Assembly (NCBI GenBank): GCA_051294375.1
Contig: CM119267.1
Location: 22,941,486-23,005,485, forward strand
From: Paraspadella gotoi
Lineage: Eukaryota; Animalia; Chaetognatha
Direction of reading: 5' to 3'
DNA: 64,000 bases
Part shown: in pieces, positions 11,689-39,182 of the stretch
Position numbering within the stretch: the stretch's first letter is position 1
Layout: every line of letters begins with the position of its first letter
Program-made: the position numbers and the translations under genes
Notes under the pieces: generated by a model
The model's input: only the letters and a program-made list of their open reading frames with translations
Told to the model about the DNA's origin: nothing
The model's database searches: none

Positions 11689-14600
11689 GCTCCAACGGCG
11701 CCGTCTCCCTCCGACTCCACCCACGCACCGACGCCGCTTTTCCCGGCGTCTTTTCCGTTTCCGGCGCAGGCGTCGTCTCCGTCCGGCGTCCGACTTCCGG
11801 CGGCTTCGATCGAGAGGCGCGCGCGTCCTATTCGATCGTCGTCGTCGCCGAGGACGGAGGGTCGCCGAGAAGATCGTCCACGTGCGTCGTGGAGGTTGAG
11901 ATCGCCGACGAGAACGGTGAGTTTTATATTTCTTCTTAAATGTATTCAAAACAGTTTAATGAAATCTTTATAAATTAACCTAAATTTTCTTTTCATTTTT
12001 AATCTAATTTGCATGACGCAGTAGAGAAAATATATTATAAGTTTTATAAAATTAAAGATTTTTTTTTAATGAATGGAGATAATTACACCTTTTAGGAATT
12101 GATTAAGTCGTGTACTTAATGTTAAGCTTTAATACTTTAACTTGCATATTTTTTTCAGACTTTACATTATTTTTTTTAACTTGCATAATTTTTCAACTTG
12201 ATAATTTTTCAACTTGCATAATTTTTTCAACTTGCATAATTTTTTTCAACTTGCATAATTATTTAAACTTGTATAATTTTTTTATCTTGCATAAATTTTT
12301 TCAACTTGCAATATTTTTTAAACTTGCTATAATTTTTTTACTTGCCATAATTTTTTCAACTTGCATAATTTTTTCAACTTGCCAGCATTTTTTTGAATTT
12401 TTAACTATCTAGTTATCAAGTTCCATTAGTGAGGCAGTGAGGAAGTTGAAATGTGTATCCATTTTATTTGTTTTATATCTATTCAATATTTTTTGTTTGA
12501 ATTTCCATTTAATTATGATTTACTGCAATATGCAAATTAGATTATAGTACTTTTTCATTAATTTTCTTTGATAGTAAAGTCTGGCGAGATCACTATACTT
12601 TTAAGATTTTTTTTATCATTATTTCGATTCGTTTATTTCTGTCTCGTTTGTCTGTTTTTACTGTAAATACAATTTTTTTCTGATACGAAGTTATAATTAA
12701 TACTTACTAGAGGTTAAACATTTTCTAAATAATTCCATCTCCCATCCAGACAACGCGCCTACTTTTCACCCTTCCGTCTACCACTCCTCCGTCGACGCCG
12801 CCACAGCCACGCCCACCACCGACGTCATCGCCGTCGTCGCCGCCGATCCCGACGCCGGCCTCAACGGCGTTGTTCGCTATAAGATGGAATCGGGTCACGA
12901 CGGCGTTTTCGTGATCGACGAACGAACCGGCGTCGTTAGACTCGGACGCCGGTTAGACCAAAATGACGCCGGGACTAAAAAGATATTCGAGCTGAGGATC
13001 TCGGCCACGGACGGCGCCGGAAGAAAGTCGGAAAACGACGCCGTGGTCCACGTGAGGGTAAGGAGGGATTTGGGTGAGGTTGTTGGGTAAGGCTTGCTCA
13101 AGATCGAAGGGAGCTTATCTTCTCTTTATCTTTACTTAATCTTTACTTACCTCCAGATCCTCACTAAGAAGTCGACCTCACCCTCGACGCCTCTCTTCGC
13201 CAGCCAGGCGTTCGTCTTTCAAATTCGCGAAGACTCTGACGCGGAACTGCTCTTCAAGAGTCGACGCGTCGGAAAGGTTAGATCACAGATTGAGTGTCAT
13301 TACGATTCCGCTGAAAAAATTTTATGAGTTAATAATCATTTTTACAATGTTCACTCTGAATTATCTACTTTTTTTTTCAAAATCTGTGGTAAAAACGCAC
13401 TACTTCGTTTAAGAAAATTTTTATAAATGTGCAATATAAGATTAAAATGTTTAATCCTTACAGGTTGAGCTCCTGCCCGATAAATCGACGGCCAACTTGA
13501 GATTCGCGATCGTGAAGGGAGATTCGACGGGCCGCTTGGCGATCAACGGCGACGGTGAGATCTTCACGGCGAAATCACTGGACAGAGAGGAGACCGAGGT
13601 GAGATCAAACTGCGGATGTGAAAAAGTGAACGTGTGATAAAAACTGAATTTTCTTCTGCGATATTCCTGTAATCGTCGGACGTGACCGATTCGTCGTTTT
13701 TAAATTTAGAAATTTTTAAATTGTGGCGAGAATTTTTGATCTGATAAGGTCGCGTGTTGTAGTTGCCACAATATACATTATACAAATACACGCTTATATT
13801 TAGTTTGTTAATTAAATTGTCGGAAGTAAAGCATTCGCTCTAAATTTATTTAAAGTTTTAAACAATCTTTGACGCAGCTTTACTCGTTGACCGTCGCCGC
13901 TTGGGGCGCCACCGTCGCCGACGACGACGATTACGACGAAACTCACGTCCGCATCGTCGTTCTCGACGTCAACGATCATCGACCGGCGTGGAACGACGCC
14001 GTCCACATCGCCGGCGTCGTCGTCGACGTCGACGAGAACGCCGCGCCACACACGCCCATTTTCGACGCCGCGGCGTCGGACCCTGACGCGGGCGTCAACG
14101 GACGGATTCGCTACCGGCTTGAAAATGACGCCGGCGGGTTGGTCGAGATCGATTCCGTATCCGGCGTCGTTAAGATCAAAACGGCGCCGACCGGCGTCAT
14201 CGGCGCCATCCCCGGCGCTCTTCTCGACGTACGCGTTGTGGCGACGGACGGAGGGACGCCGGCGCTAGAGGCGCGGCTCGATCTCCAACTCCTCGTCAAC
14301 GACGTCAACGATCACGCTCCGATTTTTGAGAATCGAACACATGACGTTTATTTGGAGGAAGACGAGGAAGTCAACGGACGGTTCCATTGTTTGAAGGCGA
14401 CGGACGAGGATGTGGGAATCAATGGGGAGGTGAGTTGGGGGCTTTGTTGTCTCTGGTGGAGATGAGATCATGGGTGAGTCGGTGAATGAAGGAGATGTTG
14501 GATGCTGGATTGTTTAAGAATTGGGATCTTAGATAAGAACATTATTTAAACATTATTTAAATTAGGCAATTAATCCTAACGCAGAGCTGCTAATATTTGA

Positions 14601-39182: not shown

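Follow-up and report, generated by a model that had tools for sequence, protein, structure and literature searches.

We analysed a window of 64,000 nucleotides (nt) from the chaetognath Paraspadella gotoi (GenBank assembly GCA_051294375.1, contig CM119267.1, forward-strand positions 22,941,486 to 23,005,485). The unique part of this window holds the 3' portion of a large Fat-type cadherin gene on the plus strand (11689-39182; 37 exons in the window, with the 5' part beyond it) and an even-skipped (eve) gene of eight coding exons on the minus strand (40470-46582). The two genes are arranged tail to tail with some 1.3 kb between them (39182-40470), and in both of them synonymous codon choice moves from C-ending to G-ending codons along individual exons. 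The best matches of the cadherin include Fat, Fat4 and protocadherin-16/23 from many animals, at 32-44% identity, and the eve homeobox is 78-93% identical to its matches. Beyond the cadherin repeats, we take the Fat translation to contain EGF-like and laminin-G-like segments, a membrane span and a tail. The cytoplasmic tail gave no match when searched, and a search of metagenome contigs with a repeat motif returned 0 matches. Coding sequence is GC-rich (0.80 at four-fold degenerate sites) and introns are AT-rich (GC 0.33).

All Fat exons are bounded by AG and GT, all 36 introns are GT..AG, and a single reading frame runs through the gene save at three single-base assembly errors, whose adjoining codons we excluded from the counts. 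Two of these errors (21714 and 23973) conflict with the contigs of public runs; the third, in exon 36 near 37590, was deduced from the frames only. Several DNA runs contain this locus, and none of the runs listed is on record as RNA; run X9 was taken to be RNA as a guess and from its spliced joints. A contig of X9 joins nine of the ten introns between Fat exons 11 and 21. Eight of the nine are GT..AG and one has 7 letters between, at an assembly error; intron 15 is not among them. For the remaining 26 introns of Fat and the 7 of eve, the model is based on GT/AG together with frame continuity. Reads of the public runs were compared over 18433-24700, and 17 substitutions were listed among the runs over these 6.3 kb, 4 of them in modelled exons. 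The contigs of four runs agree closely, and we thus rejected a basecalling artefact as the cause of the skew described below.

About one third of the window repeats the remainder with many indel errors. Positions 1-10669 are an inverted copy of 10945-21364, and 48890-57184 are a tandem copy of 41227-48863; both copies show 88-95% identity with hundreds of gaps and adjoin N gaps. They probably reflect errors of assembly or a second haplotype that was not collapsed, and both were excluded against double counting. The tandem copy carries an insert of about 720 nt (51725-52443) that contains a pair of direct repeats, each about 250 nt long and 92% alike; the insert is missing at about 44097 of the first copy. 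It resembles a miniature long terminal repeat element that differs between haplotypes. All the codon and splice statistics that follow come from the two genes of this one locus.

We measured skew as (G-C)/(G+C) at the four-fold sites of Fat exons 1-36, the exons with a downstream donor (2550 sites). It climbs almost steadily along the exon: the first decile stands at -0.68 and the final two at +0.16 and +0.08, while GC content at these sites stays between 0.73 and 0.86. The correlation with exon position (r = 0.288) was compared with a null in which third bases were shuffled within exon and codon box. The null gave 0.045 ± 0.020, and 0 of 10000 shuffles reached the observed value (permutation z 12.4); each of the eight codon boxes is significant alone. 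Among four-fold codons ending in C or G, the share of G is 46/258 within 45 nt of exon starts and 107/189 within 45 nt of exon ends. The skew rises from C to G in 29 of the 36 exons, the others being exons 3, 4, 15, 16, 22, 30 and 34. Over the length of one exon the log-odds of G against C change by about 2.5, an effect visible in single genes.

The trend had been proposed from nine Fat exons in an earlier, sequence-only reading of the window, and all nine shift between their first and last thirds (Fisher p 0.035 to <1e-5). Four-fold G goes from 1/19 to 9/12 in exon 7 (15306-15586), from 3/14 to 10/12 in exon 9 (16544-16796) and from 3/21 to 9/18 in exon 10 (17794-18132). The codons that had been quoted from exon 9, among them 13 terminal G-ending ones, are exact. 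Exon 11 (18433-18672), whose donor joint is present in run X9, goes from 2/17 to 11/12, and exon 26 (30144-30491) from 5/23 to 15/21. The long exons behave alike: 13/43 to 23/34 in exon 20 (22985-23624; both joints in run X9), 7/46 to 25/35 in exon 25 (28048-28883), 3/36 to 28/46 in exon 32 (34028-34823) and 9/53 to 34/47 in exon 36 (37419-38278). Selective picking of exons was rejected as the source of the trend, since the 27 other exons show it as well (r 0.196, z 6.5, 0 of 5000 shuffles).

The eve coding exons lie on the minus strand at 46582-46330, 43826-43602, 43374-43087 and 42787-42611 (exons 1-4) and at 42172-42009, 41766-41625, 41517-41023 and 40683-about 40470 (exons 5-8). Internal exons 2-7 follow the trend (r 0.21, reached by 0 of 10000 shuffles; p about 1e-4). 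The exon that had been cited in its support, 43374-43087, shows no significant trend when taken alone (rho 0.19, p 0.21; halves 0.56 vs 0.41). This minus-strand gene had also been offered as evidence that the trend follows transcript orientation. A block with C on the left and G on the right is unchanged by reverse complementation and looks the same from either strand; eve is therefore uninformative on the direction of transcription. Intron 1 of eve holds a nested, AT-rich, apparently two-exon frame on the minus strand (45644 to about 44650), rich in lysine and glutamate. The four-fold sites of its first exon rise to G, with 3/16 and then 9/13.

Codons outside the four-fold boxes move in the same sense along Fat exons. 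In the two-fold codons of F, Y, H, N, D and C the share of C falls from 0.87 to 0.75, in those of K, E and Q the share of G rises from 0.45 to 0.76, and A gains on T toward exon ends. The sequence-only reading held that protein constraint does not explain the switch. This stands for the four-fold gradient, which an amino-acid control leaves intact in all eight boxes; amino-acid composition nevertheless shifts too, with fewer Ser and more Glu, Lys and Gly toward exon ends. The phase of the cadherin domains may contribute to these amino-acid shifts, and most of the data come from one repetitive protein. The gradient nonetheless persists after removal of tandem-identical codons (rho 0.30, n 1914), and it is present in eve and in the intron flanks.

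These features bear on the idea that the bias is a by-product either of the avoidance of cryptic splice sites or of introns inserted at fixed phases of the cadherin repeat. AG is indeed depleted at exon starts (0.026 vs 0.058 at exon ends), as the first variant would predict. By contrast, exon ends show no avoidance of GT (0.064 vs 0.052), and the four-fold shift occurs before every following base; cryptic-site avoidance therefore provides no explanation. Furthermore, no change within a four-fold box creates an AG inside the codon. For the synonymous signal, cryptic-site avoidance is largely refuted, and we regard a by-product of either kind as highly improbable.

The gradient had been proposed to be tied to exon boundaries, and model fits bear this out. 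A term for position within the exon improves the log-likelihood by 92.9, and a term for position within the gene by 1.5-2.1. A whole-gene gradient was rejected, as gene position adds nothing to the fit. In a joint model each splice site has its own effect, with coefficients of -1.9 ± 0.19 and +1.7 ± 0.21.

The skew had been thought to reset at introns. On the contrary, it continues into the intron flanks and peaks there. At donors the GC skew is +0.18 on the exon side and +0.54 on the intron side, and at acceptors it is -0.85 on the intron side and -0.30 on the exon side. It is near 0 beyond about 100 nt into the intron from donors and 150 nt from acceptors. There are thus two zones centred on the splice sites, one of C around the acceptor and one of G around the donor. 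The first 40 intron nt contain 29 GGG and 1 CCC, and the last 40 contain 80 CCC and 1 GGG. The composition of the acceptor tracts is C 0.44, T 0.32 and G 0.03, with C exceeding T in 22 of 37 acceptors. Four of the 37 Fat acceptors end in AAG. At the Fat donors (11917-38284), GTRAGG (14/36) is commoner than GTRAGT (9/36), position +6 being more often G than T.

Longer tracts mostly follow the same polarity. All three motifs of four G-runs lie within 20 nt of a donor, one of them right after donor 25 (28892-28911) and the others at 13056-13087 and 32712-32737; eight of the nine motifs of four C-runs lie within 40 nt of an acceptor. A cluster of C-runs covers the acceptor of exon 7, from the intron end into the exon start (15259-15341), and another precedes the acceptor of exon 35 (36750-36797). 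Directly behind donors we found (GA)n tracts after donor 8 (16212-16307), donor 9 (16799-16857, with a G-run), donor 26 (30502-30552) and, on the sense strand of eve, donor 1 (46257-46316). The 5' half of intron 7 contains pure-purine tracts of 38 and 132 nt (15612-15851). (CT)n tracts precede the acceptor of exon 11 (18254-18399) and lie near the 3' end of intron 21 (25423-25503); one (CT)n tract, located toward the 5' end of intron 25 (29003-29091), departs from this polarity.

Donor-side G in the intron and G at four-fold sites of the adjoining exon end are linked locally (rho 0.60, p 1e-4, n 36; 0.57 with residuals). No such link joins the two ends of an exon: the combined coupling across exons is 0.02, and the 5' and 3' strengths of one exon correlate at -0.14. 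Across introns the combined coupling is 0.27, which is not significant (p 0.11). With 36 introns, only a rho above about 0.33 is detectable.

The sequence-only reading had suggested pairing of C-rich and G-rich RNA across the exon or the intron, so that the G/A-rich donor zones and the C/U-rich acceptor zones would bridge the intron or loop the exon. The flanks are compositionally complementary, as this idea would have it. GGG is enriched at intron starts and CCC at intron ends, and for 80-nt flanks the mean duplex energy is -37.9 kcal/mol between donor and acceptor, compared with -32.9 between donors and -21.9 between acceptors. Some across-intron correlations lean positive as well, notably that between the skews of the two exon ends flanking an intron (rho 0.34, p 0.04), which is one of 16 coupling tests. 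Nevertheless, in none of 12 tests did native donor-acceptor partners gain anything over permuted ones (z between -1.07 and +1.48), although the promiscuity of low-complexity pairing limits the power of such partner tests. None of the 36 introns combines at least three GGG at its start with at least three CCC at its end (4 and 12 introns have each; rho -0.16), and a second measure of co-occurrence gave rho 0.17 (p 0.32, n 36). Long purine tracts occur in five introns and long pyrimidine tracts in three, and no intron has both. Whole exons, for which we folded the 28 exons of at most 360 nt, showed no excess of 5'-3' pairs (15.4 vs 13.0 and 16.6, p 0.47 and 0.32). Their folding energy is lower than that of gradient-destroying shuffles in 17 of 28 exons (p 0.11) and lower than that of gradient-keeping shuffles in 20 of 28, an unexplained difference with an uncorrected p of 0.04. 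Pairing across the mRNA junction is unsupported, as is pairing across intron and exon. Altogether we consider bridging unlikely.

The explanation that we favour, with about an even chance of being right, is that two splice-site-centred zones are upheld by weak selection for polar splice signals readable on the precursor messenger RNA (pre-mRNA). The acceptor lies in a C-rich, G-poor zone and the donor in a G- and purine-rich, C-poor zone, each spreading from the intron flank across the exon by way of synonymous codons. Such a bias likely helps the splicing machinery to tell exon starts from exon ends. By mammalian precedent, on which these assignments rest, poly(C)-binding KH proteins, acting with U2AF, may read the C-rich tracts, while the G-runs and purine-rich motifs may be read by hnRNP H/F-like and SR-like proteins that would aid U1 at donors. 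Avoidance of G after the acceptor may also keep the tract unpaired, with a small predicted gain: the predicted unpairedness of acceptor tracts is 0.706, compared with 0.678 in synonymous shuffles (higher in 25/36, p 0.005). The sawtooth seen in the mRNA would then be the sum of two site-centred fields, with no structure joining particular partners. In favour of this explanation are the peaks of the skew at the splice sites, the placement of the G-run and C-run motifs there, the local link on the donor side, the separate effect of each site and a deficit of G at acceptors close to the site, which breaks the mirror symmetry considered below.

Several results weigh against selection for polar splice signals. 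The coupling on the acceptor side is weak (rho 0.31, p 0.07), G-richness is not significantly related to a weak U1 match (rho -0.24, p 0.15), and predicted accessibility is not raised at donors (18/36, p 0.92). A single linear term in relative exon position fits as well as two site effects (Akaike information criterion 2401.2 vs 2402.8). The bias also reaches far. The best-fitting decay length is 180 nt from acceptors and 120 nt or more from donors, and more than 150 nt from either end of eight long exons G still increases from 113/320 to 157/328 (permutation p 2e-4). The reach of exonic enhancers is usually given as roughly 70 nt, and the longer reach seen here therefore counts against this explanation. 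Lastly, the last Fat exon, which has no donor, ends with 7/11 G, and the two zones are nearly mirror images of each other, which is not expected of two unrelated proteins.

This near mirror symmetry keeps a DNA-level cause alive. The main rival is a strand-symmetric process at exon borders, in which splicing is only passive. Either a mutation or repair bias would act where GC-rich exons covered by nucleosomes meet the introns, or oriented C/G and CT/GA tracts that position nucleosomes would be favoured by selection. The start of the exon resembles the reverse complement of its end (CC 0.121 vs GG 0.104, TC 0.119 vs GA 0.113, GG 0.045 vs CC 0.050). When donor flanks are complemented and set against acceptor flanks in 43 introns, the two agree at distances of 25-45 and 60-100 nt (p 0.94, 0.32, 0.10 and 0.90). 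Closer than 25 nt to the sites the agreement breaks down, acceptors being poorer in G than expected of a DNA mirror (p 2e-5 and 0.003), and it is also lost at 45-60 and 100-130 nt (p 0.03). The sharp contrast in GC between four-fold sites and introns, the long range and the G-rich end of the last Fat exon all suit a DNA-level process; the last eve exon, with only 2/6 G, does not. Nucleosomes with dyad-symmetric CC/GG preferences have been described (10.1101/2025.09.01.673439), although the accessible part of that report concerns single positions and no gradient. Against such a process, the skew peaks at splice sites at every exon length (85-1030 nt), and an exon-centred process might be expected to make the two ends of an exon vary together, which they do not. 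We consider this DNA-level process possible, but not probable. The sequence-only reading had named polarised hnRNP binding and a mutational bias anchored at splice sites among its mechanisms, and both stay candidates.

A bolder proposal is that, in every exon of the lineage, a mirror-symmetric code set by DNA or chromatin, C/T-rich upstream, G/A-rich downstream and graded over the full exon, decides a large share of synonymous choices genome-wide. We find this doubtful. If it were true, codon use would be governed mainly by position in the exon instead of by translation, and some amino acids would be set by the code too. If the bias is genome-wide, splicing factors, RNA structure and DNA-level mutation or chromatin become directly testable as its source, and work in this lineage on codon optimality, synonymous divergence (dS) and gene prediction would be biased by it.

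The introns and flanks contain other features. Two transfer RNA genes (Arg and Met) lie on the minus strand inside Fat intron 21 (24576-25594). A 10-nt word with an octamer motif occurs six times in introns and flanks, in both orientations (12528, 17068, 21978, 29788, 35952 and 48203). Several intronic spots are dispersed repeats, judged by contig depth and loose ends.

The trend had been called lineage-specific, and eve homeobox exons of other animals lend this weak support. We used 53 of 57 metagenome loci, which collapse to 41 clusters; L049, on the same contig as L048, and the partial or weak loci L055-L057 were left out. The 41 clusters show no C-to-G trend (139/227 then 128/302) and no G-rich donors (G>C in 12/38, C>G in 23), in a weak control that consists of one exon whose halves differ in amino acids and of loci that are probably related. 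Many of these loci (L002-L054) have GT-rich rather than pyrimidine-rich sequence before the acceptor, which is unusual in another way than the acceptors of the window. The closest eve relative that we found, P0122 (93% identity), is an unspliced protein that runs on past the intron site. It belongs to a set of 119 parsed proteins, 71 of which run on. Its tail consists of K, E, R and G to a share of 0.81; in 51 further run-on proteins the tail could be measured, and there the share never exceeds 0.41. The lead-in of P0122 is rich in P, S, F and T, as in the window, and its tail implies an intron start made of purines only. This one datum is a hint that a relative has an intron that starts purine-rich.

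The sequence-only reading knew of no described case of this strength and polarity, which proved too strong a statement: antisymmetric exon ends have been published for Ectocarpus and for Caenorhabditis, as far as the accessible text of both papers goes. Biased codon use near exon ends is widespread and in most cases symmetric, and Wu et al. (2013, PMC3787667), in its accessible sections, calls the reason in most animals unclear, with few exceptions. In the two genes studied here, the 5' and 3' ends are biased in opposite directions, unlike the usual same-direction form of vertebrates and insects. For Ectocarpus, the same accessible sections report an antisymmetric use of C and G at the four-fold sites of exon ends, with CTC and GTC and ACC trending oppositely to GTG, ACG, CGG and CTG at the two ends, as in the window. 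The sign is the reverse, as C is avoided at 5' ends and preferred at 3' ends in the alga. Moreover, the effect appears in those sections as a nuance on a symmetric pattern, with exceptions such as CCC, whereas here it holds in eight of eight boxes and over whole exons.

The nematode acceptor consensus is TTTCAG, which the acceptors of the window lack. In Caenorhabditis, purine-rich codons are disfavoured at 5' exon ends and favoured at 3' ends according to the available portion of Warnecke et al. (2008, PMC2374712), which resembles the loss of Ser and the gain of Glu and Lys seen here. The nematode effect is, however, described there at the amino-acid level and linked to trans-splicing, and no C-rich acceptors or G-rich donors are reported in that portion. 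Effect sizes comparable to ours may be contained in PMC2374712, PMC3787667 and PMC4476162 (30 species), beyond the portions accessible.

G-runs close to donors are read by hnRNP H/F. In mammals, alphaCP/PCBP acts at C-rich polypyrimidine tracts (Ji et al. 2016, PMC4797308, accessible text), and the two systems together resemble the window in their C-rich acceptor tracts and G-runs behind donors. They differ in that the mammalian tracts and runs mark subsets of cassette exons, whereas in the window the signal concerns most exons of two genes and extends deep into the codons. Structured introns, (AC)m-(GT)n in zebrafish and (GGG)m-(CCC)n in humans, were proposed to be bridged by Lin et al. (2016, PMC4691745), the accessible part of which also describes human splice sites as followed by G triplets and preceded by C triplets. 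The human introns share with those of the window complementary low-complexity ends, with G at the donor and C at the acceptor. As presented there, they are defined by co-occurrence of the two ends within an intron, which is missing here (n 36), and their signal is intronic, whereas ours invades the coding sequence.

The accessible part of a review that lists exon-intron strand asymmetries (PMC10030826) does not include a C-to-G gradient among them, and our literature search, largely outside subscription papers, figures and supplements, found no report of C-to-G polarity over whole animal exons. Compared with known exon-end bias, the reach of the bias in the window looks unusually far. Thus, in two genes of one locus, the bias is real, strong, anchored at splice sites and antisymmetric; it is of a known kind, and within the literature covered its C-to-G form over whole exons is new.

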